NCBI GenBank assembly: GCA_963667725.2
Contig: CAXXHO010000007.1
Span: 1-64,000 of the forward strand
Source of the DNA: Treponemataceae bacterium
Lineage (GTDB): Bacteria > Spirochaetota > Spirochaetia > Treponematales > Rectinemataceae
Direction of reading: 5' to 3'
Length of the DNA: 64,000 nucleotides
The notes beneath the pieces are model-generated. The model worked only from the letters and a program-made list of their open reading frames with translations, had not been told where the DNA came from and searched no databases. Both the position numbers and the translations under genes were made by a program. Within the stretch, counting starts at the first letter, position 1. Each line of letters starts with the position of its first letter. Shown in pieces: positions 39,242-63,245 of the stretch.

Positions 39242-39269
39242 TGACGCTTCGCGCAGAGGAGAAGAACAT

Positions 39270-39965
39270 ATGTTGAGTGACATTTCTAGCTTAAAATTGA
39301 ACCCGATTAGCAAATATGAGTTCGAGCGCCTACTTAAAGTTAATATGCCAGAATTATTGGATAGGTTTTCACAATCAAAAGATCTAATAATTAAAATGGC
39401 AGATATCGTGCTTGAGACTGTTGCGCATGCAGAATTTCAGGTTAAAAAAGAGGAACATGTTAATGAATGGTCAAGTATAATCAAAATATGGAATGTAATT
39501 GGATTCGTATTATTAGCATCGCTTGATCTGAAAATATATTTAGAGTTAATGTGTATGTCAAAAGATAATATGCAAAAGATAGCTATAACTAGAATGGTTT
39601 ATACTCAACTATATGAAATTGCCAAAAATTTAGACGATTTAACTAATATCAGGTTTGTTGAAGAAATGAAAAAAATAAATGCTAATCAATATATAGCTGA
39701 ACTATATGAAAAAAGAAAAATGCTTTCTGATTTAAAAAGGAGATATGAAAAAGACTTATTTAGTGTAAGAGTCAACATAGGAGCACATAGAGAAAAAAAC
39801 TATCAAGTTTTTCATCAGTATTTATGTAGTATGGACTATACTGCTTCAATTCAACTAGTATTTATGTTTAATGAAGTAATCGATGCATTAGGAGAGACTC
39901 TTCAAAAAATAATGAATCAATCAGTGGGATTTATTAAAGATACATATAATGGAAAAGAAATCTAA
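39270..39965 (+). CDS. Cassette 3: hypothetical protein with HEPN-like R-X5-H motif
   Basis: Helical-looking sequence, RVNIGAH; stop codon inside attC R''. Confidence 0.7.
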   Translation: MLSDISSLKLNPISKYEFERLLKVNMPELLDRFSQSKDLIIKMADIVLETVAHAEFQVKKEEHVNEWSSIIKIWNVIGFVLLASLDLKIYLELMCMSKDNMQKIAITRMVYTQLYEIAKNLDDLTNIRFVEEMKKINANQYIAELYEKRKMLSDLKRRYEKDLFSVRVNIGAHREKNYQVFHQYLCSMDYTASIQLVFMFNEVIDALGETLQKIMNQSVGFIKDTYNGKEI

Positions 39966-40083
39966 CAAATGCTTCAACCTTGTAAATCCTTTGTCATGGT
40001 TTGTGCAAGAACTCCCTTGCACAAACCATGACAAGCCTTCGCTTTGCTCAGGCGCGGATTTAAAGGTTAAGCTAATGTTAGGC
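39960..40083 (+). repeat. attC 3
   Basis: ATCTAAC...GTTAGGC. Confidence 0.92.
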
Positions 40084-40183
40084 AGACGCCTTCGGCGCCC
40101 GGGGCAAAGTTGAAATCGTATAAGTACCAAGGTCAAAAAAAATGTGCCTTGTATTTATAGAGTGCATAAGTAGCGAGAATAGA

Positions 40184-40942
40184 ATGAAACCAGTAAACGT
40201 AGTCAGAAAAGGAGAAGACAATAATAGCGTTTTTATTGCTTCAAATATAGGAGAATTGCTTTTGGATACTGGTGCAACATCATCACAAATTACTGAAAAA
40301 AGTGTACCATTGAATACAAAAATAGTTGGGGATATAAAATCTCACGGTTTCTTTGGCAAAAGCAGAACTATGAGAAATTCTACTGTTCCGATTTTATCTA
40401 TAGGCGATATAGTAAAGCAAAATGTACCAATGCAAATTGATATGTCGCTTAATGCCCATGGGATATTGGGAATGGATATTTTATCAGAGTATAAAGTATT
40501 CCTTGATATAAAAAATGGTATTGTATGCTTTGATTCAGAAAAAATATGCTCACAAGAAATGTATAAAGGTAATCGTAAAATGTATTGCCTTCCCATAGTA
40601 CTAAATGGCATTTCGTTATGGGGGCTATTAGATACAGGTGCAAGCGGAACAATAGTGAGCAAAACACTATTCAAAAAGTATCCTGAGTTTTTTGAATATG
40701 CAGGAAAAGATACAGCAAAAGATTGGACAGGAGCAGGTTTTTCGTGTGATTTAGTGACAATAAAGAATCTTATTGTAGGAGATTATAAGATTCCTGATCA
40801 TAAGGGAGCTATTCTAAATCTTTGGCCTTACAGATTCCTCATTGGGAAAGCTATTGAGTTTATAATTGGTGTAACAACATTAGAGAAGGGTAATTGGATT
40901 TTTGATTTTCCTAACTCGAAATGGGAATATATTGCGTATTGA
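40184..40942 (+). CDS. Cassette 4: retropepsin-like aspartic protease (two domains)
   Basis: LLDTGA twice, GILGMD, FIIG. Confidence 0.8.
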   Translation: MKPVNVVRKGEDNNSVFIASNIGELLLDTGATSSQITEKSVPLNTKIVGDIKSHGFFGKSRTMRNSTVPILSIGDIVKQNVPMQIDMSLNAHGILGMDILSEYKVFLDIKNGIVCFDSEKICSQEMYKGNRKMYCLPIVLNGISLWGLLDTGASGTIVSKTLFKKYPEFFEYAGKDTAKDWTGAGFSCDLVTIKNLIVGDYKIPDHKGAILNLWPYRFLIGKAIEFIIGVTTLEKGNWIFDFPNSKWEYIAY

Positions 40943-40963
40943 ATAAGGGCATAGGATAATTTT

Positions 40964-41087
40964 GCCTAACACCTGCTTCAACCTTATAAATCCTTTGGCA
41001 TGGTTCTAGCGAAAAGATCGCGCAAGAACCATGCCAAGCCTTCGCAGTAGCTCAGGCGCGGATTTACAGGTTAAGCTAATGTTCTAC
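40964..41087 (+). repeat. attC 4
   Basis: GCCTAAC...GTTCTAC. Confidence 0.9.
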
Positions 41088-41140
41088 GGACCCTCCGGGC
41101 GGGAAGAATATATATACCTAATCATAGATGATTAGAGTAA

Positions 41141-41626
41141 ATGAGGGATTTTATGGGAAGTATTTTTACAGTTGACAATTTCAAACTCGCAAGTTCTATT
41201 GTTTCTCCCTTTTTAGCTGCATATCTAGCATCGCATTGGGCATTAAAAAAACACTACAAAGAAAAATGGTGGGAAAGAAAAGAAATTGCATATAAAGACA
41301 TTATTGACTCATTATATGATCTTCTACAGTATTGTGAAATTGAAAAAGAAGACTATGAGCATAGATCAACAATACAGATAGATAAATTTAATGAACTTCA
41401 GGGGAAATACAATAATGCATATTGGAATATTAAGAAAAATACCATTATAGCTGAATATCTAGTTTCAAAAGATGCAGCAGCTGCTTTAAAAATATTGCAA
41501 AATCGCGAAAAGTTGAAATGGGACGAAAATCCTCCATGGGAAATATTCGAAGCAGAATATAATGCTTATCAGAAAGCACTTATGGAAATAATCCGTACTT
41601 CAAATATTGATTTGAAAAAGAAATAA
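41141..41626 (+). CDS. Cassette 5 ORF1: hypothetical protein with N-terminal hydrophobic helix
   Basis: 161-aa ORF, EKWWERKEIAY. Confidence 0.7.
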   Translation: MRDFMGSIFTVDNFKLASSIVSPFLAAYLASHWALKKHYKEKWWERKEIAYKDIIDSLYDLLQYCEIEKEDYEHRSTIQIDKFNELQGKYNNAYWNIKKNTIIAEYLVSKDAAAALKILQNREKLKWDENPPWEIFEAEYNAYQKALMEIIRTSNIDLKKK

Positions 41627-41729
41627 GTCAAATATATCAATATTGTGATTAGATTTAAGAACTTACAATAGCAAGAAGATATATATTGTGTGGTAAGGTT
41701 TAGAGTTAAATATTTTTTAAGGGGGAGAA

Positions 41730-41933
41730 ATGAATATCAAGGAAGGTTTTAGGAGATTATCGATTTTGATTGGTATTATTAGTACATTAGTTTTCTTTTT
41801 AGCTTTTGCTTCAAATAATGGAGAACAAATAGGTTTAGTAATTCTTGTTTCACTAGTGGTAGGGTTAGTTGCATCTGGAATCACTTTACTGATTGGTTAT
41901 GTCCTAGAAGGCTTTAAAAATAAAAATGCGTAG
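41730..41933 (+). CDS. Cassette 5 ORF2: small 2-TM protein
   Basis: RBS GGGGAG; two hydrophobic helices; stop in attC. Confidence 0.7.
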   Translation: MNIKEGFRRLSILIGIISTLVFFLAFASNNGEQIGLVILVSLVVGLVASGITLLIGYVLEGFKNKNA

Positions 41934-42053
41934 AACACATGCTTCAACCTTATAAATCCTTTGGCATGGTTTGTGCAGGAACAAAAATGCACAAACCACG
42001 CCAAGCCTTCACTTTGTTCAGGCACGGATTTAAAGGTTAAGCAAATGTTAGAT
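41930..42053 (+). repeat. attC 5
   Basis: GTAGAAC...GTTAGAT. Confidence 0.9.
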
Positions 42054-42110
42054 GGACGCCTTCGGCGCATATAAAATAAAAAAGTAAAAGCTGCCATTTT
42101 AAGGGTTACT

Positions 42111-42638
42111 ATGAAAATATTTACAAATAGATTGGAATTAAGAGAGTATTGTGAAAATGATCTAGAGCTGTTGCATAACTTTAGGATTGATAAAAATATT
42201 TCAAAGTATATTCATTGGAATGACCTAAGCCTTGAAGGTACGAGAAGTATTCTAAAAGAGGGGCTTGATGATCAAAAAGAAGAAAATAGAAAGTATTATC
42301 ATTTTGTAGTTTGCTTAATGCCGGATAATATCCCAATTGGAGAGATAGGTGTCAATATAAAAATTAGCAATATATATGGCGGCATTGGTATATTAGGCTA
42401 TTTTATGTTTAAAGAATATTGGCATAATGGGTATATGTCTGAAGCAGCGCATGGAATTATAGAATATATGTTTATTGAGCTTAAGTTACATAAAATAGAG
42501 GCATATGTTGATTATAAGAATAAAAGATCAATAAAGGTGTTAAAAAGATTAGGAATGAAGAAAGAAGCACAATTTAAAAAAGAAGTATTCGTTAACAATA
42601 GATGGGAAGATGTTGTTTATTATGCATTAGTAAAGTGA
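42111..42638 (+). CDS. Cassette 6: RimJ/RimL-type GNAT
   Basis: TNRLELR, YWHNGYMSEA, NKRSIKVLKRLGM. Confidence 0.88.
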   Translation: MKIFTNRLELREYCENDLELLHNFRIDKNISKYIHWNDLSLEGTRSILKEGLDDQKEENRKYYHFVVCLMPDNIPIGEIGVNIKISNIYGGIGILGYFMFKEYWHNGYMSEAAHGIIEYMFIELKLHKIEAYVDYKNKRSIKVLKRLGMKKEAQFKKEVFVNNRWEDVVYYALVK

Positions 42639-42667
42639 AATTGAGAAAATGAGATTGGGAAGCATTC

Positions 42668-42790
42668 ATCTAACAACTGCTTCAACCTTATAAATCCTTT
42701 GTCATGGTTTGTGCAAGAAAAAAGAGCACAAACCACGCCAAGCCTTCGCTTTGCTCAGGCGCGGATTTAAAGGTTAAGCTAATGTTAGAA
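42668..42790 (+). repeat. attC 6
   Basis: ATCTAAC...GTTAGAA. Confidence 0.92.
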
Positions 42791-42892
42791 CGACCTCATT
42801 CTATTGACTAGAGCCTTGCATGATCTTGTTGCAGAATACTAAGCAGAATTGCATGATTATCATAAGAAAGATCATTTTTACATTACTGGACG

Positions 42893-43117
42893 GAAAAAAG
42901 TCTTGAGATGCCGCTCCAAGAAGCGCGCATTGGGCTTCTTGGAAAGTGGCGGCTAAGAGCTTCGCTGTAGGCAGTTCATCGGTCCCACCGCAGAAGATTT
43001 CTCTCTGGGAATGAAACCAGTGATTCGCAGAGAGCTGCCCACAGCGAAGCGAAGAGGCCGCAAAGGGAAAAAGTAAAATAGCGCGCGAAGAGGAGCGGCA
43101 GAAGAGCGACTTTTTTC
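42893..43117 (+). ncRNA. Putative structured ncRNA in gene-less cassette 7 (42785-43319)
   Basis: Third copy with helices retained. Confidence 0.55.
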
Positions 43118-43201
43118 GCATTCAGAGTTGGCGAAGAGGCTCGCCAAGATTACGTAATGTGATTATATCTTTGTGGCGGTTGGTAGCGCTAAAGTTGGCG
43201 A

Positions 43202-43325
43202 TTCTAACAAAAGCTTCAACCTTATAAATCCTTTGTCATGGTTTGTGCAGAAATCCCATGCACAAACCACGCCAAGCCTTCGCAGTAGCTCAGGCGCGGA
43301 TTTAAAGGTTAAGCTAATGTTAGAT
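43202..43325 (+). repeat. attC 7
   Basis: TTCTAAC...GTTAGAT. Confidence 0.92.
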
Positions 43326-43382
43326 TGACGCTCCCGCGCAGGAAGAAAACAATATAGGCTGCTATTTGAGTAAACGGGTTCT

Positions 43383-43943
43383 ATGATGGACAAATCGTAT
43401 AAAGCAATTACCGACTTCATATTTCTTGAAGATCAACCTCAGAAAGCAGATATAATACTTATTCCTGGTGGCAGCAAACCACAACTAATGGAAAGAGCGT
43501 GTTCATTATTTTTTGATGGGTATTCATCATTGTTACTTCCATCTGGGGGAAAGAATAAAGCATTAGTAAACTATGAAACAGAATGGGACTATTTTTTTGA
43601 AATAGCAAAGAAAATGAGTATTCCAGAAGAGGTTGTACTTAAAGAAGATAAAGCGACTAATACATATGAGAATGCACTTTATTCGAAAAGAATAATTGAA
43701 GATAAGGGAATACTAATAAAGAAAGCATTGTTAGTATGTAAAGCATTTCATGCTAGAAGAGCCTTATTAACATATCAGACATGGTTTATGAATGATATAG
43801 AATACATTATTTGTCCAATTGTGGATGATAGAGGAATAAGTAGAGATAATTGGTATCTAGATCAAAATAAAATTGTAAAAGTAATGAGTGAAGTAGAAAA
43901 GGTAGGGAAGTATTTTAAAGATAATTTGAGTTGGATCATTTAA
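43383..43943 (+). CDS. Cassette 8: YdcF/DUF218-family protein
   Basis: ADIILIPGG, SGG, EDKATNTYENA, FHARRA. Confidence 0.85.
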   Translation: MMDKSYKAITDFIFLEDQPQKADIILIPGGSKPQLMERACSLFFDGYSSLLLPSGGKNKALVNYETEWDYFFEIAKKMSIPEEVVLKEDKATNTYENALYSKRIIEDKGILIKKALLVCKAFHARRALLTYQTWFMNDIEYIICPIVDDRGISRDNWYLDQNKIVKVMSEVEKVGKYFKDNLSWII

Positions 43944-43956
43944 GAACTGAAAAGAA

Positions 43957-44096
43957 ATCTAACACATGCTTCAACCTGATAAAAACTTTGTCACGGTTTG
44001 TGCGATCGCGCGCCACTTCGTGGCTTCGCTCTTCACGCACAAACCGCGCCAAGCGCGAGTACGCGCCTGTTTTTACAGGTTAAGCCAATGTTAGCC
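43957..44096 (+). repeat. attC 8
   Basis: ATCTAAC...GTTAGCC. Confidence 0.9.
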
Positions 44097-44117
44097 ATAT
44101 TAAGTTAAAATCAAGGC

Positions 44118-44960
44118 GTGAACATGCAATTTGAACAATTATACAAATTATCAAGAAGGCCGAAGCTTTACGAGTTAGGCAACTCAATTATGTGGACGGA
44201 TCCGTATATATCAAAACAGCTTCTTGAATGTCATCTCAATCCAAATAATGATATGGCGAGTAGAAGTAATGATAAAATCAACCTTGTAATAGATTGGATT
44301 GAGCAACATACAAATAAAGAAAAAATGGATATTCTTGATCTTGGATGTGGTCCCGGACTTTATGCAGAAAAGTTCGCAAGCCATGGCCATAAAGTTTCTG
44401 GTGTAGACTTTTCAAGCAACTCTATAGCGTATGCGAAAAAAGCTACATTGCTGAACAAGACAAATATTAGCTATTACTGTAAGAACTACTTGGATATCGA
44501 TTTCAAAGAGGCTTTTGATCTAGTTATACTGATCTACCTTGATTTTTGTGTTCTTAATGTTCATGAACGTAAAGTAGTAATAGAAAATGTATATAGATCA
44601 CTAAGAGATGGCGGAGTCTTTATATTTGATGTAGTGAATAGCAACAACATAGAAGATAAAGTACTAAAACAATCATGGGATATAAGTAAAAAAGGCTTTT
44701 GGAGTGATAAGCCATATATTGTCATGAATAATGGCTATAATTATAAAGATGATAAAGTATTGCTAAACCAGCATATTGTCATTACGGAAGATGAGGCTGT
44801 AAAGACATATCATTTCTGGAGCATATATTATGATTATGAAGATATCGTTCCATCACTAAAAGACAGTCGTTATAAAAGTATTGAAAGTTATAATAACGTG
44901 CTTCCAAAGACTGATGCTTGGACAGGAGATAACATTTCATTCTATATAGCAAGGAAATAG
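44118..44960 (+). CDS. Cassette 9: class I SAM-dependent methyltransferase
   Basis: ILDLGCGPG, GVDFS, LRDGGVFIFD. Confidence 0.88.
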   Translation: MNMQFEQLYKLSRRPKLYELGNSIMWTDPYISKQLLECHLNPNNDMASRSNDKINLVIDWIEQHTNKEKMDILDLGCGPGLYAEKFASHGHKVSGVDFSSNSIAYAKKATLLNKTNISYYCKNYLDIDFKEAFDLVILIYLDFCVLNVHERKVVIENVYRSLRDGGVFIFDVVNSNNIEDKVLKQSWDISKKGFWSDKPYIVMNNGYNYKDDKVLLNQHIVITEDEAVKTYHFWSIYYDYEDIVPSLKDSRYKSIESYNNVLPKTDAWTGDNISFYIARK

Positions 44961-44971
44961 TAAAAAGAAAT

Positions 44972-45097
44972 GGCTAACAAATGCTTCAACCTGATAATTG
45001 CTTTTGTCACAGTTCTTGCAGTCGCTTCGCTCGGCAAGAACTGCGCCAATCCTTCGCTTCGCTCAGGCCGCAATTACAGGTTAAGCCAATGTTATGC
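44972..45097 (+). repeat. attC 9
   Basis: GGCTAAC...GTTATGC. Confidence 0.92.
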
Positions 45098-45162
45098 GGA
45101 CTCGCGCATTCGCGCGAGCTAAGTTGTTATATTAGCGAAATATATAATTAGCTATATTGCCC

Positions 45163-45191
45163 TTGACATTACACATACAGATGTGTAAACT
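45163..45191 (+). promoter_or_regulatory. TA promoter with overlapping operator
   Basis: TTGACA-N17-TAAACT; IR TTACACAT-N4-ATGTGTAA. Confidence 0.8.
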
Positions 45192-45211
45192 ATAAGGGTA
45201 TGGAGGACATC

Positions 45212-45409
45212 ATGGCTACAAACCTCGCTATAGATGATAGATTACTCACAAAAGCGCTTGAAATTGGCGGTTATAAATCAAAAAAGGACACTGTTAATGC
45301 TGCACTCGATGAATTTATCAAAAGAAGAAAAGCGAAAGAGCTTATAGATATTTTTGGTACAATTGAATATGAGGCTTCTTATGATTATAAAAAAATGAGA
45401 TCACGATGA
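45212..45409 (+). CDS. vapB: Cassette 10: VapB-type antitoxin
   Basis: MATNLAIDDRLL...SKKDTVNAAL; overlaps PIN toxin. Confidence 0.85.
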   Translation: MATNLAIDDRLLTKALEIGGYKSKKDTVNAALDEFIKRRKAKELIDIFGTIEYEASYDYKKMRSR

Positions 45410-45819
45410 AACGAGTATTAGTAGATACTTCAGTATGGTCTCTTGCATTAAGAAAAAAGGAAAGAACGGAGGAAGAACAAAAGATTGTAAGCCATCTATC
45501 TAAACTAATAAGTAATCTTACTATTGTTCTTATAGGTCCAATACGGCAAGAGATTCTATCGGGAATTCCAACGAAAGAACGATTTGAAGCACTTAAAGAA
45601 AAAATATCAATATTCGAAGATCATAAAATACATACAAATGATTATGAGCTTGCCGCAGAATACTTCAATGAATGTAGAAAACATGGGATACAAGGATCTC
45701 ATATAGATTACTTAATATGTTCCGTTGCTACAAATAATGATATGTCAATATTTACATTGGATAATGATTTTCAACTCTATAAAAAACATATAAGAATTAA
45801 GTTAGAAAAATTCGCATAA
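45406..45819 (+). CDS. vapC: Cassette 10: PIN-domain toxin
   Basis: VLVDTSVW, QEILSG, IDYLI, TLDNDF. Confidence 0.88.
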   Translation: MKRVLVDTSVWSLALRKKERTEEEQKIVSHLSKLISNLTIVLIGPIRQEILSGIPTKERFEALKEKISIFEDHKIHTNDYELAAEYFNECRKHGIQGSHIDYLICSVATNNDMSIFTLDNDFQLYKKHIRIKLEKFA

Positions 45820-45938
45820 CAACCGTTTCAACCTTATAAATCCTTTGTCATGGTTTGTGCAGGAACAACAGTGCACAAACCACGCCAAGCCTGAGCTAGC
45901 GCTCAGGCGCGGATTTAAAGGTTAAACGAATGTTCGAT
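45814..45938 (+). repeat. attC 10
   Basis: GCATAAC...GTTCGAT; compensated L box CGTTTCAACC/GGTTAAACG. Confidence 0.9.
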
Positions 45939-46063
45939 GGACGCCTGCGGCGCAGCGTAAATAATGTATAGAGTATCATTAGGTTTCTACGATCTATTAA
46001 GCATTATAGAGTACTATTTGGTGTGTACAATCAAATAATACTAATCCTAAAATATTTACTTAT

Positions 46064-46555
46064 TTGGAGATTCAATTGTTTTCTGGAAAAGAAAAAATCA
46101 AAGTAAAAGCTTTAGGGCTATTTCAGCAAGAGGATTTCATATTTGTTTCGAAATCATATGATACAGTTAAGAAAGATTACTTCTTTAGGCCGATTGGTGG
46201 GACTGTTGAGTTTGGAGAATATGCACTTGATACGTTACGAAGAGAAATACTTGAAGAAATGAAGGCAGAGATTGTTAATATTAGGTTAGAGAAAATATGG
46301 GAGAATATATTTGTATGTGATGGAATAGATGGGCATGAGATAGTATTTCTGTATACGGCAGACTTCAAAGATGTAAAGTATTATGAGAAAAAAGAATACA
46401 CAATTGTTGAATCAAATGGAGAAGAAGTGCCAGCCTTATGGGTTAAGAAAGAAGAGTTTCTAGAGAAAAGATTACGATTGGTTCCTGAGGCATTAGTTGA
46501 GTATTTGAAAAATGATAGTCATGGAAGACATCGAACACATGCTTCAACCTTGTAA
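46064..46555 (+). CDS. Cassette 11: NUDIX hydrolase
   Basis: GGTVEFGEYALDTLRREILEE; reads into attC. Confidence 0.85.
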   Translation: MEIQLFSGKEKIKVKALGLFQQEDFIFVSKSYDTVKKDYFFRPIGGTVEFGEYALDTLRREILEEMKAEIVNIRLEKIWENIFVCDGIDGHEIVFLYTADFKDVKYYEKKEYTIVESNGEEVPALWVKKEEFLEKRLRLVPEALVEYLKNDSHGRHRTHASTL

Positions 46556-46653
46556 ATCCTTTGTCATGGTTTGTGCAAGAACAACAATGCACAAACCACG
46601 CCAAGCCTTCGCTGCGCTCAGGCGCGGATTTAAAGGTTAAGCTAATGTTAGAC
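46530..46653 (+). repeat. attC 11
   Basis: ATCGAAC...GTTAGAC. Confidence 0.9.
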
Positions 46654-46730
46654 GGACGCGCTTAACGCGCGCGCATAGGAATTTGATGTAGCCTGAGTCT
46701 TAAGAGTAGATGTTTTGAGTATATTACGGC

Positions 46731-50702: not shown

Positions 50703-50820
50703 CACATGCTTCAACCTTATAAATCCTTTGTCATGGTTTGTGCAAGAAAAGAAGAGCACAAACCACGCCAATCCTTCGCTTCGCTCAGGCGCGGATTTAA
50801 AGGTTAAGCTAATGTTAGAA
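50697..50820 (+). repeat. attC 16
   Basis: GCCTAAC...GTTAGAA. Confidence 0.92.
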
Positions 50821-53950: not shown

Positions 53951-54026
53951 AGACGCGCTTCGCGCGCGCAAAATAAAGTCATATAGTTTAATAAGTTAAG
54001 TTGAAATAGTAAGTTTTTTAACTTTC

Positions 54027-55479: not shown

Positions 55480-55520
55480 GGACGCGCTAACGCGCGCGCA
55501 AAATCGCGATCCTGTAAAGC

Positions 55521-55549
55521 TTTACAAATGCTTCAGTGGTGTGTATACT
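55521..55549 (+). promoter_or_regulatory. TA promoter
   Basis: TTTACA-N17-TATACT. Confidence 0.7.
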
Positions 55550-55582
55550 ATTACTAGATAGTACACATTGTGGAGGTTCTGT

Positions 55583-55774
55583 ATGAGAACTAATGTTGTA
55601 ATTGATGATAAATTAATGAATAAGGCAAAGAAGGTCTCTGGCTTGAAAACCAAAAAGGAAACTATTGAAGAGGCTCTTAAGCTTTTGGTAGCTCAAAAGG
55701 AGCAATCAGAGATCAGAAAGCTTCGTGGAAAGCTCAAATGGGAAGGTAACCTTGAAGAGATGAGGCTAGACTGA
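55583..55774 (+). CDS. vapB: Cassette 23: VapB-type antitoxin
   Basis: MRTNVVIDDKLM...TKKETIEEAL. Confidence 0.85.
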   Translation: MRTNVVIDDKLMNKAKKVSGLKTKKETIEEALKLLVAQKEQSEIRKLRGKLKWEGNLEEMRLD

Positions 55775-56166: not shown

Positions 56167-56170
56167 AATC

Positions 56171-56292
56171 AGCTAACACCTGCTTCAACCATATAAACCC
56201 TTTGTCATGGTTTGTGCAAGAAAGAAGAGCACAAACCACGCCAAGCCTTCGCTTCGCTCAGGCCGCAATTACAGGTTAAGCTAATGTTAGAT
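56171..56292 (+). repeat. attC 23 (chimeric arms)
   Basis: AGCTAAC...GTTAGAT. Confidence 0.88.
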
Positions 56293-56416
56293 TCACGCTG
56301 CGCGAGCGGAAAAAGATACATGTTAATCTTTTTATTGCCAATGTTAAGTTGATCCTTCAAAAAATAATATCAAGACTAAAAGTTTTTAGAGTCTTTATTT
56401 TAAATAAGGGACAATT

Positions 56417-56914
56417 ATGGAATATTGGGATGTATTGGATTCAAATAGAAATAAAACTGGAAAAGTTATTCTTCGTGGTGAAGCATTCAAAGAGAATGAA
56501 TATCATCTAATTGTACATGTATGGATAAAGAATTCAAAGAATGAATTTGTAATTTCAAAAAGAAAGAAAGATAAATATCCGTACCCTGGGTTATGGGAAT
56601 GTACAGGTGGTTCGGCTGTATCAGGAGATGATAGCTTAGAAACTGCTTTGAAAGAAGTAAAAGAAGAATTAGGAATTGATTTGGATAAAGAAAGAGGAAA
56701 GATCATATATCAATATAAAGGTGATAATGGCTTTAGTCCGCATTTTGTAGATGTATGGGTCTTTAATCAAGAAGTAGATAAAATGGCAATACAATGTCAA
56801 GAATCTGAAGTTGAAGAAGCAAGAATAGCATCACGAGAAGAAGTACTAGAACTTATAAAGGATAATAAGTTCGTACCTGATTGTAGACTATATATAGATA
56901 AGGTAGTTAATTAA
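56417..56914 (+). CDS. Cassette 24: NUDIX hydrolase
   Basis: GGSAVSGDDSLETALKEVKEELG. Confidence 0.88.
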   Translation: MEYWDVLDSNRNKTGKVILRGEAFKENEYHLIVHVWIKNSKNEFVISKRKKDKYPYPGLWECTGGSAVSGDDSLETALKEVKEELGIDLDKERGKIIYQYKGDNGFSPHFVDVWVFNQEVDKMAIQCQESEVEEARIASREEVLELIKDNKFVPDCRLYIDKVVN

Positions 56915-56921
56915 AGAGGAA

Positions 56922-57034
56922 ATCTAACACATGCTTCAACCCTATAACGTTATTGTCACGGTTTGTGCAACTCGCTTTGCTCGCAAGCACAAACCGCGCC
57001 AATGTACGCGTTAATGGTTAAGCTAATGTTGGAC
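56922..57034 (+). repeat. attC 24
   Basis: ATCTAAC...GTTGGAC. Confidence 0.9.
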
Positions 57035-57067
57035 GGACGCGCTTAACGCGCGCCCTAGGAGCTTGAA

Positions 57068-57616
57068 ATGATCATTAAAGAGTTAAGCCTAATTACAATG
57101 TCTGATTGGTTTGATTTCTTTGATAATCGGGCATTTTTAGATCATGAAGATTGGAATGGCTGCTATTGTACTGCTTTCTATTACCCAAAACCAAAGGAGT
57201 ATGTAAATCTATCAGATAGAAGAAAAGAATATGCCAAATGGCTAATAGAAACGGGCAGGATGAAGGGATACTTGGCATATGATGAAGAGAAAGTAATAGG
57301 CTGGGTAAATGCTAATGAAAAGAAGAACTATCCAAGGCTAGAAGATATCTATGATGCTTCCGAGAAAGTACTATCGATCGTTTGCTTTATAGTTCAAAAA
57401 GAGTACAGAAGAAAAGGTATAGCAAAGCAACTACTAAGTAGAATTGATGAAGATGCAAAAGGAAAAGGATATCTAGTTATAGAGGCATATCCAAAGAAGA
57501 GATCAAAATCAGAATTCGGAATCTGGAATGGTCCCTATGAAATGTATGTTAAGGCAGGATTTAGTGATTATAAAATTGGGAAAGTTAATGTAGTTAGGAA
57601 GTACATAGGCAGTTAA
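57068..57616 (+). CDS. Cassette 25: GNAT acetyltransferase
   Basis: GCYC, IVCFIV, YRRKGIA, IEAYP. Confidence 0.85.
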   Translation: MIIKELSLITMSDWFDFFDNRAFLDHEDWNGCYCTAFYYPKPKEYVNLSDRRKEYAKWLIETGRMKGYLAYDEEKVIGWVNANEKKNYPRLEDIYDASEKVLSIVCFIVQKEYRRKGIAKQLLSRIDEDAKGKGYLVIEAYPKKRSKSEFGIWNGPYEMYVKAGFSDYKIGKVNVVRKYIGS

Positions 57617-57624
57617 ATAGGGTC

Positions 57625-57758
57625 GTCCAACAACTGCTTCAACCTGATAGTTGCTTTTGAAACACTTTTTGCAGTCGTCGCTTCGCTCCTTGGCAAAAAG
57701 TGCGCCAATCATTCGCTTCGCTCAGGCGCGGATTTAAAAGTTTAAGCTAATGTTAGGC
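57625..57758 (+). repeat. attC 25 (chimeric, mutated L box)
   Basis: GTCCAAC...GTTAGGC. Confidence 0.85.
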
Positions 57759-57796
57759 GGACCCTGCTATCGCAGGGCAATCTATAGAGAGTTCAT

Positions 57797-57961
57797 ATGG
57801 GTAAGATAAATAAAGAGTGGCATGAAAAGAATAAGATGCCTCAGAATGCTTCAGATGAGCAAAGAATAGCATGGCATTTAGCTCATTCGCAGAATTGTGC
57901 TTGTAGAAAAATTCCTAAAGGTATAATTAACCTTATGAAAGAAAAGCATTTATCAGTTTAG
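57797..57961 (+). CDS. Cassette 26 ORF1: 54-aa His/Cys-containing small protein
   Basis: MGKINKEWHEKNKMPQNASDEQRIAWHLAHSQNCACRKIP...; below ORF-track cutoff. Confidence 0.65.
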   Translation: MGKINKEWHEKNKMPQNASDEQRIAWHLAHSQNCACRKIPKGIINLMKEKHLSV

Positions 57962-57974
57962 AAAGATAATAGAC

Positions 57975-58502
57975 ATGAATAGAAAACCATTATTCTTTAT
58001 CTTCTCTGGATTGCCTGGAGTAGGGAAGACAACGCTTTCTAAAGCTCTTGCTATTCAGTATCATGCAGCTTTCTTTAGAATTGATACCATAGAACATGGT
58101 ATCAAAGAGTTGTGTAACTTTTCTGTACAAAGTGAAGGCTATAGATTAACTGAAAAGATAGTTAAGGATAATCTTCTTATTGGGAGTAATGTTGTTATTG
58201 ATTGCTGTAATCCTTATGAGTTCATACGAAAAGAGTGGAGCGATCTAGGGTTAGAATGTAATGCAGAAAATATAAGAATTGAAATAGTATGTACTGATAA
58301 GAAAGAACATAAAGAGCGAGTAGGGAAACGAGAGAGTGATATACAAGGGTTTGAAGTACCATCATGGGAAGAAGTAGAAGCTAGGGAGTACGAGGCATGG
58401 GAGATTGATGTAATAAGGGTTGAGACATCAGGGAGAAGTGAAGAAGAGAGCATTAAAGAGCTTATAAATATGGTTAAAATGAAGGTAAAAGATTTCGCCT
58501 AA
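57975..58502 (+). CDS. Cassette 26 ORF2: P-loop kinase (AAA_33-like)
   Basis: SGLPGVGKTT, RIDTIE. Confidence 0.85.
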   Translation: MNRKPLFFIFSGLPGVGKTTLSKALAIQYHAAFFRIDTIEHGIKELCNFSVQSEGYRLTEKIVKDNLLIGSNVVIDCCNPYEFIRKEWSDLGLECNAENIRIEIVCTDKKEHKERVGKRESDIQGFEVPSWEEVEAREYEAWEIDVIRVETSGRSEEESIKELINMVKMKVKDFA

Positions 58503-58603
58503 CAAAAGCTTCAACCTTAAAAATCCTTTGGCATGGTTTGTGCAAGAACTCCCATGCACAAACCGCGCCAATGTACGCGTTAATGGTTAAGCTAATGTTA
58601 GAT
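58497..58603 (+). repeat. attC 26 (chimeric arms)
   Basis: GCCTAAC...GTTAGAT. Confidence 0.88.
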
Positions 58604-58619
58604 TTATTTAGGAGAACAT

Positions 58620-59285
58620 GTGAAGCAAGATGATATATTAGCTCGTGTGAAAGAATTTACGGAAGTGTCTTTTCTCGATCATAGATATTCTTCATTTGAT
58701 TATTGTTACAATTATTTTAGAGAAAATGAAAATAATAAAATTCTTGAAGATATGGAAAAATCATGTGCGATTTTAGGATTCTATTTAGCTAGTTGGGGTA
58801 TGTACCGTGGTTCTAGTTTCCTATTGCAGAAGAGCTATAGATATTTTATTGATTTAGTAAATTATATAGCTAGTGTTGATAGAGCAATATGGAAAATTAA
58901 GCCTGATAAATTCATAGATAAAGAAAGTCAAGAATTGATATTGGAAATATATAAAAAGGTTAAAGAGAATATAATTAAAGATGAAAATCAAGAAAGGGTA
59001 CTTATAACAAAAATAATGCTTGGAGTGTTTGGAGTAATTCCTGCATTTGATACCTATTTTTGTAAAGCTTTTAAAGAGATAGAGCCTAAAACTTCTCGAT
59101 TTACTAAAGTAAATGAAGATTCTCTTAGTGTAATCGGAAGATTCTATATTGAAAATGAATATGATATAGTTAGTTTATCTAAAGAGATAAAAACAAATGA
59201 CTTTATTACCGGAAAAGAAAGATATCAATATACAAATGCAAAAATTATAGATATGTATGGATTTGTAAAAGGAACAAAAATCTAA
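58620..59285 (+). CDS. Cassette 27: hypothetical protein
   Basis: GFYLASWGMYRGSSFLLQ, ITKIMLGVFGVIPAFD. Confidence 0.75.
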   Translation: MKQDDILARVKEFTEVSFLDHRYSSFDYCYNYFRENENNKILEDMEKSCAILGFYLASWGMYRGSSFLLQKSYRYFIDLVNYIASVDRAIWKIKPDKFIDKESQELILEIYKKVKENIIKDENQERVLITKIMLGVFGVIPAFDTYFCKAFKEIEPKTSRFTKVNEDSLSVIGRFYIENEYDIVSLSKEIKTNDFITGKERYQYTNAKIIDMYGFVKGTKI

Positions 59286-59389
59286 CAACTGCTTCAACCT
59301 GATAATATGGCCTATCACGGTTCTTGCAGCGCTCCGCGCTTGGCAAGAACTACGCCAGTCTCATTTTAAAGGTTAAGCGTATGTTAGCC
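59280..59389 (+). repeat. attC 27
   Basis: ATCTAAC...GTTAGCC. Confidence 0.85.
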
Positions 59390-59417
59390 GGACGCAGCTT
59401 CGCTGCGCGGGATCAAA

Positions 59418-59726
59418 TTATAGAATCTGAAGATAGTTGCGCTTACCGTAAATGAATCGATGGATCTGGACTTCGTTTTCAACAATCACATAGAAAAGGA
59501 GAAAGTTATCTATCGGGATCATGTGGTACCCTAGTTGATTCAAGTATGGATCCTTTACTAATGGGTAAATCAAAAGATTGTTTTCTAATCGATCAATGGC
59601 TTCAGAGAACTTGTTGAATAAAGAAGCTGGAGAGGTTTTTAGTATTTGTTCAAAGTATTCTTTAATGTCATAGAGATCATGTTCAGCTGTCGGATAGATG
59701 AGAACAGAATACCTCTGCTTACTCAT
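59418..59726 (-). CDS. Cassette 28: ParE/RelE-family toxin (inverted)
   Basis: AEHDLYDI, FLLFY, IHRFIYGKRN. Confidence 0.82.
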   Translation of the reverse strand: MSKQRYSVLIYPTAEHDLYDIKEYFEQILKTSPASLFNKFSEAIDRLENNLLIYPLVKDPYLNQLGYHMIPIDNFLLFYVIVENEVQIHRFIYGKRNYLQIL

Positions 59727-59980
59727 GATACTAAGAGCCCATTTATGACATCATGAGCATTTTTCCCTTTAGCATCTTTCTTGATCTCCTCGCGGGCTTC
59801 ATTAAGCTTTTGGTAGAGCTCAAGTTTTGCGAGCTGTTGATCATAGTACTCGAGAGACATTACAACGAGATCACCAATACCGTTTTTAGTGAGAAATACT
59901 GGTTCACTATCCGAATGTGCAATCTCGGAGATAGATGTGAAGTTGTTTCGAAGATCGGAAATCGGACGAATAATGGGCAT
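59723..59980 (-). CDS. Cassette 28: Phd/YefM-family antitoxin (inverted)
   Basis: IRPISDLRNN, EPVFLTKNG, VVMS. Confidence 0.88.
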   Translation of the reverse strand: MPIIRPISDLRNNFTSISEIAHSDSEPVFLTKNGIGDLVVMSLEYYDQQLAKLELYQKLNEAREEIKKDAKGKNAHDVINGLLVS

Positions 59981-59998
59981 GGGATCCTCCTAAAAGAT

Positions 59999-60027
59999 AG
60001 TATAATGATACTATAATGATAAGTCAA
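59999..60027 (-). promoter_or_regulatory. TA promoter
   Basis: TTGACT-N17-TATACT on minus strand. Confidence 0.75.
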
Positions 60028-60094
60028 GAAGATAAAGCCAGTAGATAGTATTGATATATAGTTACTTCTAAAAGAATTAGCTGTTAAAAGATAC

Positions 60095-60227
60095 GGCTAA
60101 CACATGCTTCAGCCTGATAATTGCTTTTATCACACTTTTTGCAGTCGTCGCTTCGCTCCTTAGCAAAAAGTGCGCCAATCCTTCGCTTCGCTCAGGCATG
60201 GATTTAAAGCTTAAGCTAATGTTAGGT
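60095..60227 (+). repeat. attC 28 (chimeric arms)
   Basis: GGCTAAC...GTTAGGT. Confidence 0.85.
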
Positions 60228-60256
60228 GGACGCGCTTAACGCGCGCTACAAGGAAA

Positions 60257-60916
60257 GTGAGTATGATCAAGAATAAGGCAATTATACTAGCAACTAGAAT
60301 ATCCTCATTCATTGTTGTCTTATTGGGCATCATCTCCATAGGTGGCGGGTTCAAAGGAAAATGGAACTGGTCATTATTCATGTACTATACCGTGCAAAGC
60401 AATACTCTCGTGCTGCTGATGTTTGGCTATTTGATTGTTAGGACGATTATAAGCATTAAGAACAAATCTGATCTCATAACCAAAACCAAAGACTTCGAAA
60501 TGGTCTGCATGGTAGACATATTTTTGACCTTCTTTGTGTATTGGACAATGTTGGCGCCGAAAATGACCTCACTGTGGGAGTTTTCAAACATTACCGTTCA
60601 TGGCGTAACGCCATTACTATGCATTATTGACTACATTCTTTATTATCAAAATAGTAGGTTAAAGTATCGAACTGTTTATTATGCCCTTATCTATCCGTTG
60701 CTCTATATAGTTTCCAATTCAATCGTGGGTTTACTTGGATATATCTATTACTATGATAGAACAGGTAGGCCTGTACATTTCCCTTACTTTTTTATGGATT
60801 ATGACAGGTTGGGGATCAAAACCATACCTTATATAGCTGGGTTAGTCGTGTTCATGGTTTGCATGAGTCATATAGTCTATGGTATTGATAAACGTATACT
60901 GAAGAAAAAGAGATAA
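60257..60916 (+). CDS. Cassette 29: Pr6Pr-like membrane protein
   Basis: YYTVQSN, VHGVTP, YPLLY, FPYFF. Confidence 0.75.
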   Translation: MSMIKNKAIILATRISSFIVVLLGIISIGGGFKGKWNWSLFMYYTVQSNTLVLLMFGYLIVRTIISIKNKSDLITKTKDFEMVCMVDIFLTFFVYWTMLAPKMTSLWEFSNITVHGVTPLLCIIDYILYYQNSRLKYRTVYYALIYPLLYIVSNSIVGLLGYIYYYDRTGRPVHFPYFFMDYDRLGIKTIPYIAGLVVFMVCMSHIVYGIDKRILKKKR

Positions 60917-60931
60917 TGAAGTAATAGTAGC

Positions 60932-61058
60932 ATCTAGCACCTGCTTCAACCCGATAATTGCTTTTGGCGCAATTCTTGCAGTCGCTGCGCTCGGCAAGAA
61001 CTGCGCCAAGCCTTTGCTTCGCTCAGGCGCGGATTTAAAGGTTAAGCCAATGTTAGGT
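60932..61058 (+). repeat. attC 29 (R'' mutated, chimeric)
   Basis: ATCTAGC...GTTAGGT. Confidence 0.8.
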
Positions 61059-61124
61059 GGACGCGCTAAGGCGCGCCAAGCAAGATACTGAATAGTTGAG
61101 CTATTGATGCATAGGAGTATAATC

Positions 61125-61766
61125 ATGTCGGATTACTCAAAAAGTGCATTGGAGATCTTGCGCAATCCTCAGAAGACAATGCAATGGTACATTATCCCGA
61201 TCTTTGTAATTGTCTTATACATATATTATAAAGAGTTACATGATAAGCACTACAATGTAGTATTAGGGGCATTTGCTTTATGGGGAATGGACCTCTTTAA
61301 CGAGATATGGAATAGCATTGTTTTTCATGCAACGGGGTTTGCTCCAGTGTGGGGCACTCCTGGCGGAGTAGGGAATACTTCATTATTGCTCTTGATTGGC
61401 TACAATATAGAAATATCGCTTATGTTCGCTGTTATGGGGATCGCCGTATGCTTAAGCTTGCCTAAAGACAAGACAAAGAAGATATTGGGGATCAATAATA
61501 GAATATTTTTAGGAATAGGGTTTACTACCGTAGCGGTGCTTGTCGAATGCTTTTTAAATTATGCTGGTTTATTGACGTGGGAATATCCTTGGTGGAGCAG
61601 GCAGGCGCCATGGCTTGTATGGCTTATAGGGTATGCTCCATTCTTTACGATGGCATTTATTGTCCATGATATGAAGAAACGCAAGAATCAAATACTTACT
61701 TTAGGTATAATACTGGGCATTGATATCATTGCATTAATTGTATTTGGAAGTATTGGTTGGATGTAA
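61125..61766 (+). CDS. Cassette 30: multi-pass membrane protein
   Basis: About 6 TM segments; AGGAG RBS. Confidence 0.75.
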   Translation: MSDYSKSALEILRNPQKTMQWYIIPIFVIVLYIYYKELHDKHYNVVLGAFALWGMDLFNEIWNSIVFHATGFAPVWGTPGGVGNTSLLLLIGYNIEISLMFAVMGIAVCLSLPKDKTKKILGINNRIFLGIGFTTVAVLVECFLNYAGLLTWEYPWWSRQAPWLVWLIGYAPFFTMAFIVHDMKKRKNQILTLGIILGIDIIALIVFGSIGWM

Positions 61767-61778
61767 TAGAGAAGAAGC

Positions 61779-61908
61779 TTCTATCAATCGCTTCAATCCA
61801 ACTCGGCTACTGTCACGGTTTGTGCAAGGCCGCTTGGCTCCCAGCACAAACCACGCCAAGTTTTCGCTTCGCGCAGGCTCGGATTTAAAGGTTAAGCTAA
61901 TGATAGAC
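61779..61908 (+). repeat. attC 30 (both core triplets altered)
   Basis: TTCTATC...GATAGAC. Confidence 0.75.
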
Positions 61909-61940
61909 AAACGCGCTTCGCGCAGAGGAAAGATCTTCAC

Positions 61941-62384
61941 ATGAGAGTATGGTCATTGCACCCCAAATACCTAGATGCAAAAGGCATCGTCGCGGCGTGG
62001 AGAGAAGGGCTATTGGCAAAAAAGGTGCTAGAGGGAAGAACAAACGGATACAGAAACCATCCTCAGCTATGCCGATTCAAAGAGTGTAAAGACCCTGTTG
62101 AAGCAATAACTGCATATCTGCAGCATGTGTATAGTGAATCCCTTGTACGGGGCTATCGATTCAATGGAGACAAAATAGGTCCACATAGAGAATGTACGGA
62201 AATGATGATAGAAGTGACAGACGGGCAAATTGCATATGAGTATCGCTTGTTGCTGCATAAACTGAAGGCAAGAGATCCAACTAAATATAATCGGATAAAG
62301 AACATAAAGGACATTGAAGTAAACGGGATATTCAAGGTGATTGAAGGTGGGATTTGTGAATGGGAGAAAATGAAAGAACTATAG
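61941..62384 (+). CDS. Cassette 31: pyrimidine-dimer DNA glycosylase/endonuclease V-like
   Basis: MRVWSLHPKYLD, WREGLLA, GYRNHPQL, RGYRF. Confidence 0.8.
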   Translation: MRVWSLHPKYLDAKGIVAAWREGLLAKKVLEGRTNGYRNHPQLCRFKECKDPVEAITAYLQHVYSESLVRGYRFNGDKIGPHRECTEMMIEVTDGQIAYEYRLLLHKLKARDPTKYNRIKNIKDIEVNGIFKVIEGGICEWEKMKEL

Positions 62385-62463
62385 GTTCACTATCCGAATG
62401 GGCAATCTCGGAGATAGTTGTGAAGTTGTTTCGAAGATCAGAAATCGGATAAAAAAGAAGAAC

Positions 62464-62537
62464 GGCCAACTCCTGCTTCAGCTTGATAATTGCTTTTGTC
62501 ACAGTTCTTGCAGTCGCTGAGCTCGAGAAGAATTGCC
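62464..62537 (+). repeat. Truncated attC (left part only)
   Basis: GGCCAAC..GCTTCAGC..TAATTGCTTTTGTCACAGTTCTTGC; no L'/R' boxes. Confidence 0.7.
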
Positions 62538-62554
62538 TACCTAAAGGATAAGCG

Positions 62555-63070
62555 ATGAATGTATCATTCCAGCTACTTAAGAAACCTACAAACGAAATAA
62601 TTGAAAAAATGGTTATATGGAATAATGATCCAAGCCTAAGGCCTCTTATTAGACCGAATAAATGTGAAGCAGATCTAGAAAAAATAATGACCACTTCTGA
62701 AATTGAATCGGGAATGAAGCACAGTATTACGCATATAATAAAAATTGACAAAGAAGTGGTTGGAGAAATAGGATATCAGATAGAACCACCTCAGTTGTTT
62801 AAGAAAGAAAAAGGAACCGTATGGATATCTATCATAATAGGAGAACAAGCAGCCCATGGCAAAGGTATTGGAACTGAAGCGATGGAGTATATAGAAAAAG
62901 TAATAAAAAAAGAAGGCTTTAGTAGGATTGAACTAGGAGTATTTGAGTTTAACAAGGTAGCACTAGGACTCTATCAAAAGATGGGATATAAGGAGATAGG
63001 AAGAGTGAAAGAATTCACCTATTGGAATGGAAAGATGTGGCAAGATATAAGAATGGAAAAGAACATTTGA
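62555..63070 (+). CDS. Cassette 32: GNAT acetyltransferase
   Basis: HGKGIGTEA, NKVALGLYQKMGY. Confidence 0.85.
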   Translation: MNVSFQLLKKPTNEIIEKMVIWNNDPSLRPLIRPNKCEADLEKIMTTSEIESGMKHSITHIIKIDKEVVGEIGYQIEPPQLFKKEKGTVWISIIIGEQAAHGKGIGTEAMEYIEKVIKKEGFSRIELGVFEFNKVALGLYQKMGYKEIGRVKEFTYWNGKMWQDIRMEKNI

Positions 63071-63085
63071 ACGAGGAATGAATAT

Positions 63086-63199
63086 TTCTAACACTCGTTT
63101 CAACCTGACTCGGCCACTGTCAAGGTTTGTGCTGCTCACTTCGTTCGCAAGCCACGAATCGCGCCTATTGACGCCTCGCAGGTTAGACGTATGTTAGAA
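63086..63199 (+). repeat. attC 32
   Basis: TTCTAAC...GTTAGAA. Confidence 0.85.
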
Positions 63200-63245
63200 C
63201 GGCGCCTCCGGCGCCGGATCTTAAGAATCTATATTGGAGTGCAAT

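Follow-up and report, generated by a model that had tools for sequence, protein, structure and literature searches.

The window analysed here, that is, the whole stretch of 64,000 nucleotides (64 kb) of contig CAXXHO010000007.1 from a Treponemataceae bacterium, contains a chromosomal integron in which most gene cassettes begin with a small hairpin just past the crossover of the recombination site. We call it the leader hairpin. The integron comprises the following features:

36700..37992, plus strand: integron integrase IntI, 430 aa; TIGR02249 at 461.6 bits (1.3e-138, cut-off 265); same direction as the cassettes
36700..36885, plus strand: HARP-like N-terminal domain of IntI, residues about 1-62; Pfam HARP at 23.9 bits (E 3e-5), below the gathering cut-off of 25; 4O66 by profile and Foldseek
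38130..38167, plus strand: attI, left end approximate, crossover at G38161; junction TGTCCAATAAAT/GTT, common to all three integrases of the genome
38161..64000, plus strand: cassette array; attC search gives 31 complete sites in the window, each 107-140 bp long

From 38 kb onward the GC content drops from about 65% to 35%. An IntI above the family cut-off, attI beside intI and an array of attC sites with R'', L'', L' and R' boxes make this a sedentary chromosomal integron of the Treponema type. intI is co-oriented with the cassettes in the window and also in 8 of the 9 loci with a HARP-type integrase and attC sites. Homologues of the integrase bear the names Rectinemataceae and Treponemataceae, and the attC sites resemble those of named spirochaete records, both of which point to a spirochaete host. 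The genome has three integrases of this integron type and, by motif search, 243 attC sites (160 on contig C5, 38 on C1, 28 on C7, the contig of the window, and 17 on C3). Those on C3 form integrase-free clusters, and for C7 a looser search recovered three sites beyond the 28 motif matches.

An earlier note, made from the letters of the window, had described a hairpin at a near-fixed offset behind the crossover in 24 cassettes. Defining the hairpin as a stem without mismatches, 3-7 pairs long and including three or more G/C pairs, and numbering bases from the G of the core GTT as 1, we find it at exactly 24 of the 32 cassette starts in the window, spanning 39245 to 63214, and all six stems quoted in the note are present. 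Genome-wide, 143 of 210 distinct cassette starts have the order core, N, GA, hairpin. The offset is even tighter than claimed: the 5' arm begins at base 11 in 139 of the 143 hairpin starts, bases 9-10 are GA in 135, and a C directly follows the stem in 134. The A at base 10 (A10) is kept irrespective of the hairpin (97% with, 90% without). The bottom-strand loops in the window are GAA (nine), GGA (four), GTTAA (four), GCA (two) and GGGA, GTTA, GATA, GAAT and CTTA (once each). The individual hairpins are listed below; the registers at 56296 and 61913 were read by eye, as alternatives to that of the script.

39245..39253, minus strand: mini-hairpin, top CGC-ttc-GCG, bottom loop GAA
40087..40097, minus strand: mini-hairpin, top CGCC-ttc-GGCG, loop GAA
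41091..41099, minus strand: mini-hairpin, top CCC-tcc-GGG, loop GGA
42057..42067, minus strand: mini-hairpin, top CGCC-ttc-GGCG, loop GAA
43329..43338, minus strand: mini-hairpin, top CGC-tccc-GCG, loop GGGA
45101..45118, minus strand: mini-hairpin of a PIN toxin-antitoxin cassette, top CTCGCGC-attc-GCGCGAG, loop GAAT; upstream of the cassette's own promoter-like site at 45163-45191
45942..45952, minus strand: mini-hairpin of a NUDIX cassette, top CGCC-tgc-GGCG, loop GCA
46657..46671, minus strand: mini-hairpin of the cassette at 46647, which has BrnT/BrnA on the opposite strand, top CGCGC-ttaac-GCGCG, loop GTTAA
47455..47465, minus strand: mini-hairpin, top CGCC-ttc-GGCG, loop GAA
48207..48221, minus strand: mini-hairpin, top CGCGC-ttaac-GCGCG, loop GTTAA
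49156..49166, minus strand: mini-hairpin of a cassette near-identical to that at 42047, top CGCC-ttc-GGCG, loop GAA
51474..51482, minus strand: mini-hairpin, top CGC-ttc-GCG, loop GAA
52247..52257, minus strand: mini-hairpin, top CGCC-tcc-GGCG, loop GGA
53954..53966, minus strand: mini-hairpin, top CGCGC-ttc-GCGCG, loop GAA
54716..54726, minus strand: mini-hairpin, top CGCC-tcc-GGCG, loop GGA
55483..55496, minus strand: mini-hairpin, top CGCGC-taac-GCGCG, loop GTTA
56296..56304, minus strand: mini-hairpin with linker CA instead of GA, top CGC-tgc-GCG, loop GCA; by eye
57038..57052, minus strand: mini-hairpin, top CGCGC-ttaac-GCGCG, loop GTTAA
57762..57777, minus strand: mini-hairpin, top CCCTGC-tatc-GCAGGG, loop GATA
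59393..59407, minus strand: mini-hairpin of the cassette at 59383, which has Phd/ParE on the opposite strand, top CGCAGC-ttc-GCTGCG, loop GAA
60231..60245, minus strand: mini-hairpin, top CGCGC-ttaac-GCGCG, loop GTTAA
61062..61075, minus strand: hairpin, exception to the loop rule, top CGCGC-taag-GCGCG, loop CTTA
61913..61923, minus strand: mini-hairpin after a degenerate core (GAT for GTT), top GCGC-ttc-GCGC, loop GAA; by eye
63202..63214, minus strand: mini-hairpin, top GCGCC-tcc-GGCGC, loop GGA

The leader hairpin is real and not a product of chance. Random positions in cassette bodies yield 48 hairpins in 19,743 (0.24%). Shuffling bases 11-30 of the 210 starts 300 times yields a mean of 9.8 and a maximum of 19, or 0.2 and 2 when the loop rule described below is required as well, so that the enrichment over composition-matched controls by which the note had wanted its claim judged is clearly present. 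When only the element's own letters are shuffled, a mean of 30 and a maximum of 45 of the 143 remain. Contigs of runs X1 and X2 (possibly the source sample itself) agree letter for letter with the window over several hairpins, and the hairpins are therefore no assembly artefact. Over 4.2 Mb, only nine cores followed by a hairpin lie outside the attC list; read by eye, five belong to attC sites that were damaged or had been missed, two to attI junctions and two to junctions with no attC that could be recognised. An Rfam search gave nothing at gathering score.

Across all data there are 17 distinct stems. The closing C-G pair is invariant, as imposed by the filter used, position 2 is a G/C pair in 17 of 17 (G-C or C-G), pairs 3 to 5 can be C-G, G-C, T-A or A-T, and compensatory pairs are found at positions 2-6 counted from the loop. 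Arms of differing stem types cross-pair in 16 of 132 cases. The observation that the stems vary and stay paired thus stands, within limits: the CGCC type makes up half of all copies, and the covariation is real but limited. A covariation check on seven sequences found one pair altered on both sides, a score that 11 of 500 shuffles reach, which is weak alone.

The loops point to a DNA motif of the bottom strand. The G(N)nA loops noticed in the window follow a genome-wide rule, c(G..A)g on the bottom strand (C(T..C)G on the top), which holds in 131 of the 143 hairpins, with the reverse polarity in none. Among 64 triloops in d(GCGNAGC), only GNA forms the mini-hairpin structure, and the matching RNA hairpins are far weaker (PMC13037366). 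The triloop counts in the genome (GAA 67, GGA 10, GCA 6, GTA 5) agree with the melting order published for d(GCGNAGC) in the same source, which supports a DNA mini-hairpin on the bottom strand. The leader hairpins also show two sequence marks of the cGNAg and cGNNAg class, a G..A loop closed by C-G and two G/C pairs beside the loop. Moreover, A10 and the C after the stem form a mismatch on the top strand and a G.T wobble on the bottom strand only. It has been published that GAA loops and a G.T bias favour the bottom strand inside attC (PMC5027507, PMC2727003). Inside the attC sites studied here, the same motif class occurs 216 times on the bottom and 25 times on the top strand, and a GA-GC-GNA-GC-GA side hairpin, with tandem G.A beside the GNA loop, is found on the bottom strand of 157 of 239 attC sites (e.g., 50775-50791) and on the top strand of none. 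The replication strand was not readable from GC skew on the array contigs, where the signal is too noisy.

To assess selection we compared 35 homologous cassette pairs, one per family, each the least alike at 96% or less (68-96% identity) and with at least one member carrying the hairpin. A perfect hairpin is retained in 32 of the 35. Changes affect 22 of 302 stem positions (7%), 7 of 70 loop ends, 11 of 53 loop-interior positions and 262 of 945 spacer positions (28%). Judged from the sequences, the stem is under purifying selection, changing about four times less often than the spacer next to it.

The position of the hairpin relative to the crossover matters too. Seventeen cassettes have tandem leaders with a second core about 55 bases inside, a count that omits five similar leaders without an inner core by pattern. 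The outer hairpin is intact in 13 of the 17 and the inner one in 1, and the 3' end of the cassette fits the outer core at 5 of 5 bases in all 12 cassettes with a known end. The window has one such inner site:

56343..56362, plus strand: inner second core-like site that lies 57 bases into the cassette and has a decayed hairpin after it

Of the element-derived starts, 3 of 8 are intact in integrase-free clusters, as against 114 of 131 in arrays (p 0.003). Under a rough classification, 115 of 158 cassettes that face forward and have no promoter carry the hairpin, as do 12 of 15 in reverse orientation and 15 of 17 in which a promoter-like site follows the hairpin. Selection therefore looks tied to recombination at the crossover and not to expression. 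A gene-less unit of about 55 bp, consisting of a core, hairpin, purine run and short palindrome like a vestigial attC, stands ahead of unrelated cassettes at 56286-56362, in 11 further cases on C5 and at locus L094, with a second, decayed core left inside; it is possibly an empty mini-cassette.

The hairpin is coupled to the other end of its own cassette. Across 212 cassettes, pairing of bases 4-8 with the own 3' end reaches 94-100%, and that with the upstream neighbour stays at chance level, which implies an 8-bp R stem in the excised circle. Base 9 was compared on collapsed families (152, two of them dropped for poor end match): pairing with the own end is seen in 39 of 47 hairpin-less families and in 0 of 103 that have the hairpin, or, limited to families with G at base 9, in 16 of 23 and 0 of 101 (p 5e-15). 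The flank of the upstream neighbour is not linked to the hairpin in this test (p 0.24). It is thus the two ends of one cassette that are coupled, and this points to the excised circle. Nearly all families have A at base 10, a base that is paired in 26 of 103 with and 3 of 47 without the hairpin. In other genomes, pairing drops from 0.87 at base 8 to 0.06 at base 9 in 31 cassettes near HARP-type integrases, and falls gradually (0.75, 0.61, 0.54, 0.50) in 28 cassettes near other integrases. The cassette end also has a purine tract just before R'' (0.80 versus a background of 0.59 in this lineage, 0.60 versus 0.55 elsewhere), which corresponds to a pyrimidine tail on the bottom strand. An example is the partner end of the cassette with the 39245 hairpin:

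39950..39959, plus strand: purine tract just before R''

The coupling, the purine tract, the conserved A10 and the HARP-like domain of IntI go beyond what the earlier note had described. Pairing of base 11 in hairpin-less cassettes (55%) was rejected as a composition effect, as it involves the own end in 23 and the neighbour in 24 of 47. Hairpin type is weakly linked to the type of the cassette's own attC (p 0.003 over all arrays, p 0.058 in the largest array alone). The upstream site also shows a nominal link when all arrays are taken together (p 0.026) and none in the largest; we do not use these links as support.

Among 68 further genomes from the same family, 6 match a strict pattern of the element. 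The hairpin is common where stretches of relatives, including relatives of the same order, were taken without selection, and 40 of 50 neighbouring sites not picked by the pattern carry it, a few of the 50 being false sites. We also looked for a link to the integrase. SMARCAL1 HARP (4O66) is the top match of the IntI N-terminus in a profile search (E 0.007) and in Foldseek with a predicted model (pLDDT 81; prob 0.99, E 0.03, TM 0.51). A comparison with the UvsW N-terminus (Z 6.3, rmsd 2.3, 62 aligned) is level with unrelated folds, and in a wide fold search of the domain no single family stands out. The scan covered 141 integrase loci, 12 HARP-like (9 with sites), 101 without the domain (38 with sites) and 28 incomplete and siteless. 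The hairpin occurs at 45 of 58 sites, in 7 of 9 loci, near HARP-type integrases and at 1 of 92 sites near other integrases; the figures for A10 are 54 of 58 and 21 of 92. Fifteen Bacteroidota integrase loci added to the scan have the hairpin at 0 of 3 sites. The one hairpin among the 92 lies on the minus strand of L166 (G656:C6) near 14,700 and has a GA linker, a cGTAg loop and a C after the stem. The HARP-like domain is kept throughout a clade of integrases of 390-520 aa. Long integrases of a different class (L136-L143, L160, L166) are extended at the N-terminus by a helical, SAM-like part, and most of them have no attC array close by.

At least 111 loci match the element, including some in Bacteroidota, Bacillota, Chloroflexota and archaeal bins; among the matches listed, 49 titles name a spirochaete, and a strict scan finds attC beside 53 of 114 distinct ones. 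We do not claim a native range across phyla, because many non-spirochaete matches are contigs of 2-7 kb with spirochaete-type attC and some are chance matches in GC-rich genomes. Of six distinct plasmid cassettes with spirochaete-type attC, five class 1 cassettes show the GA linker with the hairpin, pairing over 8 bases and base 9 left open, namely aac(6')-F72, aphA16, aac(6')-Iae, aac(6')-Ia with gcuG (loop off the rule) and one with a hypothetical gene. In the sixth (L296) the core was not found, and the other cassette starts in those plasmid loci have the hairpin in 0 of 11. On an Aliarcobacter plasmid (L293, NZ_CP099557.1, 2460-2530), an attC is followed by core, GA and hairpin ahead of msr(D).

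On this sequence evidence, the leader hairpin is a real, selected and lineage-specific extension of the attC design with a putative function. IntI acts on the folded bottom strand of attC, which SSB, the protein that binds single-stranded DNA, opens from at least three free overhang bases, and a GC clamp at the base of the stem hinders this opening (PMC5737091). DNA mini-hairpins are poorly bound by SSB (PMC13037366). We consider it moderately probable that the hairpin is an accessory recombination structure at the base of the folded attC, formed on the bottom strand and suited to the excised circle. This reading draws on the loop rule, the strand bias, the conservation among homologues, the decay away from the crossover and the coupling to the own end. 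The bottom strand of the circle would read, in order, GNA-type mini-hairpin, two-base linker TC, 8-bp R-box stem under the folded attC and unpaired pyrimidine tail, and a fork-like junction would result where the two cassette ends meet. The hairpin, which we infer to fold in the cell and to aid attC folding or engagement, might act as a clamp, limiting fraying and, to one side of the stem, leaving SSB and nucleases fewer than three free bases. Alternatively, the HARP-like domain at the N-terminus of the integrases of this clade might recognise the fork-like junction; SMARCAL1 has been reported to act at forks (PMC3409536), a finding on SMARCAL1 and not on the IntI domain. The moderate probability stated applies to clamp and fork jointly. 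Cassettes without the hairpin would use a 9-bp stem instead, for which reason we take the hairpin to tune recombination and not to be required for it. Possible, though doubtful, is the further idea that mini-hairpin, GA linker, 8-bp stem and pyrimidine tail form a two-ended signal that exists only in the excised single-stranded circle, mimics a fork and is read by the HARP-like domain or a primase. If so, attC recognition would have a fourth structural determinant, located outside the site, and there would be sequence evidence for cassettes as single-stranded circles.

The accessory single-stranded DNA element that the note had proposed is thus supported indirectly, and several observations weigh against it. 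About 30% of the starts (67 of 210) have no hairpin, including all 17 cassettes shorter than 400 bp, which makes the hairpin accessory rather than required. Hairpin-less families are duplicated no less often: among long cassettes 5 of 49 are, versus 5 of 145 with the hairpin (p 0.13), and among families of all sizes 11 of 62 without and 5 of 145 with the hairpin are multi-copy (p 0.001). The pyrimidine tail on the other side of the stem would still be open to SSB. Swapping GAA for TTC inside the VCR site altered recombination only few-fold (PMC2727003), so any effect of the hairpin may be small. ViennaRNA DNA energies show no strand difference (-4.22 top, -4.24 bottom kcal/mol), probably because the energy model has no GNA bonus; pairing probabilities in modelled circle junctions are equal for both strands and uninformative on strand choice. 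The 17 tandem leaders share ancestry, and age alone may explain the decay in integrase-free clusters. As to the HARP-like domain, the sole non-spirochaete HARP-IntI array seen (L257) has the hairpin at 0 of 3 sites, the domain is present in 4 of 29 genomes that hold the element and are not labelled spirochaete, it is also fused to recombinases other than IntI (L267, L268; 28-30% like IntI), and class 1 (IntI1) arrays hold hairpin cassettes. The association of domain and hairpin is confounded by lineage, and attempts to separate domain from lineage failed.

In another scenario, which we regard as unlikely, the hairpin and the adjacent T mark, on the single-stranded circle, the start at which a primase or polymerase makes the top strand. 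Mini-hairpins are found at the G4 primase site and at RSF1010 ssiA, whose CCGAAGG core is the commonest loop here (PMC13037366), and the strandedness of excised cassettes is left open in PMC5027507. The mini-hairpin lies on the template strand, as in single-strand initiation, A10 is retained with or without the hairpin, the coupling of the two ends implies a circle, and very short cassettes have no hairpin. The triplet beside the stem nonetheless varies, being GAC yet GAT in several relatives: base 10 is nearly invariant and base 11 is C or T. Given the variation at base 11, we did not retain a T7-type GTC primase site as a specific reading. Moreover, in the standard model the bottom-strand circle integrates without a second strand, which counts against priming. 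Distinctly unlikely is also a mere footprint of cassette birth, in which genes are captured in an empty unit, or R'' is copied from the 5' end up to the hairpin, with no later role. It would account for an 8-base or 9-base end match that depends on the hairpin, for the gene-less 55-bp unit ahead of unrelated genes and for the weak tie of hairpin type to own attC type. The fourfold better conservation of the stem than of the spacer in old homologous pairs, in which loop interiors drift and loop ends do not, and the decay of displaced inner hairpins nevertheless make the passive footprint suggested in the note less likely, while leaving room for a role in genesis itself. The sole reverse-transcriptase domain of the genome (C5, 1,086,274-1,086,735, within a 1736-aa open frame) lies about 0.5 Mb from the nearest array, and none adjoins the arrays.

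A role at the RNA level, as a 5' stabiliser (the alternative of the note) or processing mark of cassette mRNAs or as a hairpin modulating translation, we judge very unlikely. The hairpin does lie in the 5' leader, often followed by purine-rich Shine-Dalgarno-like runs, and attC hairpins in mRNA reportedly affect downstream expression (PMC6557892). Yet the transcript-strand loops (UUC, UCC, UGC, UCCC, UAUC) are neither UNCG nor GNRA, there is no Rfam match, the hairpin is as common in reverse-oriented and self-promoted cassettes, inner hairpins nearer to the start codon decay, and the coupling to the own end has no RNA explanation. Least credible to us is a brake, by which the hairpin and the open base 9 reduce recombination of gene-bearing cassettes and stabilise very long arrays. 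The excess of multi-copy families without the hairpin and the stem shorter by one pair that accompanies it would fit; the copy-number effect, however, is mainly one of short gene-less cassettes, and the loops are tuned to the recombining strand, as inside attC.

Several further observations concern the arrays. Duplicated cassettes in the window (42047/49146, 44090/52943 and 52237/63193; two GNAT families and one methyltransferase) suggest past recombination activity only. At least five cassettes between 45091 and 59980 are of toxin-antitoxin type (three PIN, BrnT/BrnA and Phd/ParE), two of them on the opposite strand. At 62445-62540 an attC has R'' and L'' and no right half, so that two cassettes are fused. 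Three cassettes (38161-38704, 38698-39241 and 42784-43325) are related to one another, measure about 426 bp and show no clear gene; they are rich in short inverted repeats and have neither a leader hairpin nor an Rfam match, and two of them come first at attI. Gene-less cassettes at 434-544 kb of C5, at least 12 copies of 163 bp and 6 copies of 229 bp, also have no hairpin. In the left arm of attI (38130-38160) a pyrimidine tract precedes an inverted core. By eye, this core has G as its ninth base in most of the attI sites seen, a hint that bases 9-10 extend the integrase box.

A selected structure past R' would provide a sequence handle on the state of the excised cassette, single- or double-stranded (PMC5027507), and its coupling to the far end a handle on how the two cassette ends come to match. 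For the N-terminal domain of these integrases, the hairpin junction is a candidate substrate. Cassettes that originate from spirochaetes, among them several aminoglycoside-resistance cassettes in class 1 integrons, may also be recognised by the hairpin as a second mark of provenance.

The literature searched describes no hairpin beyond R', although the original T. denticola integron report and supplements might show the motif in alignments, and neither coupling of the ends at base 9 nor HARP on IntI; the accessible sections of PMC3607928, PMC6557892, PMC4909258, PMC8946536 and PMC11641012 contain none of the three. In the 'inverted' sedentary chromosomal integrons of the Treponema type, intI is likewise co-oriented, the attC L boxes are similar and the cassette pools are large and AT-rich (PMC3607928, PMC6557892). 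As far as the text of these two papers was accessible, the site ends at R' and no leader hairpin, purine tract or N-terminal domain is mentioned. The structural features of attC include extrahelical bases, an unpaired central spacer, a variable terminal structure and, in short sites, a GAA terminal loop. They resemble the leader hairpin in that the bottom strand folds and is favoured by a loop of GAA type and by G.T wobble (PMC5027507, PMC2727003), and a small GC-rich apical hairpin of attC has been proposed to help IntI against SSB (PMC5737091). Unlike these features, the leader hairpin lies outside R' and past the crossover, is part of the downstream cassette, meets its own attC only in the circle and co-varies with the far end of its cassette; starting at base 11 past the crossover, it is not the variable terminal structure of attC, which lies between L'' and L'. 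The d(GCGNAGC) and d(GCGNNAGC) mini-hairpins of the G4 origin, RSF1010 ssiA and the N4 virion RNA polymerase promoters follow the same rule for loop and closing pair on a strand that is functionally single-stranded (PMC13037366). Here, in contrast, the context is a recombination site, pentaloops occur too, and no primase or virion polymerase is linked, no primase gene having been sought near the arrays. Finally, aacA1:gcuG was assigned to Spirochaetes by its attC (Ghaly 2021, PMC8352920), and the same cassette has a leader hairpin here. Since its provenance was already known by attC, which is all that the accessible text of that study models, the hairpin is an added, second mark, located at the other end of the cassette.

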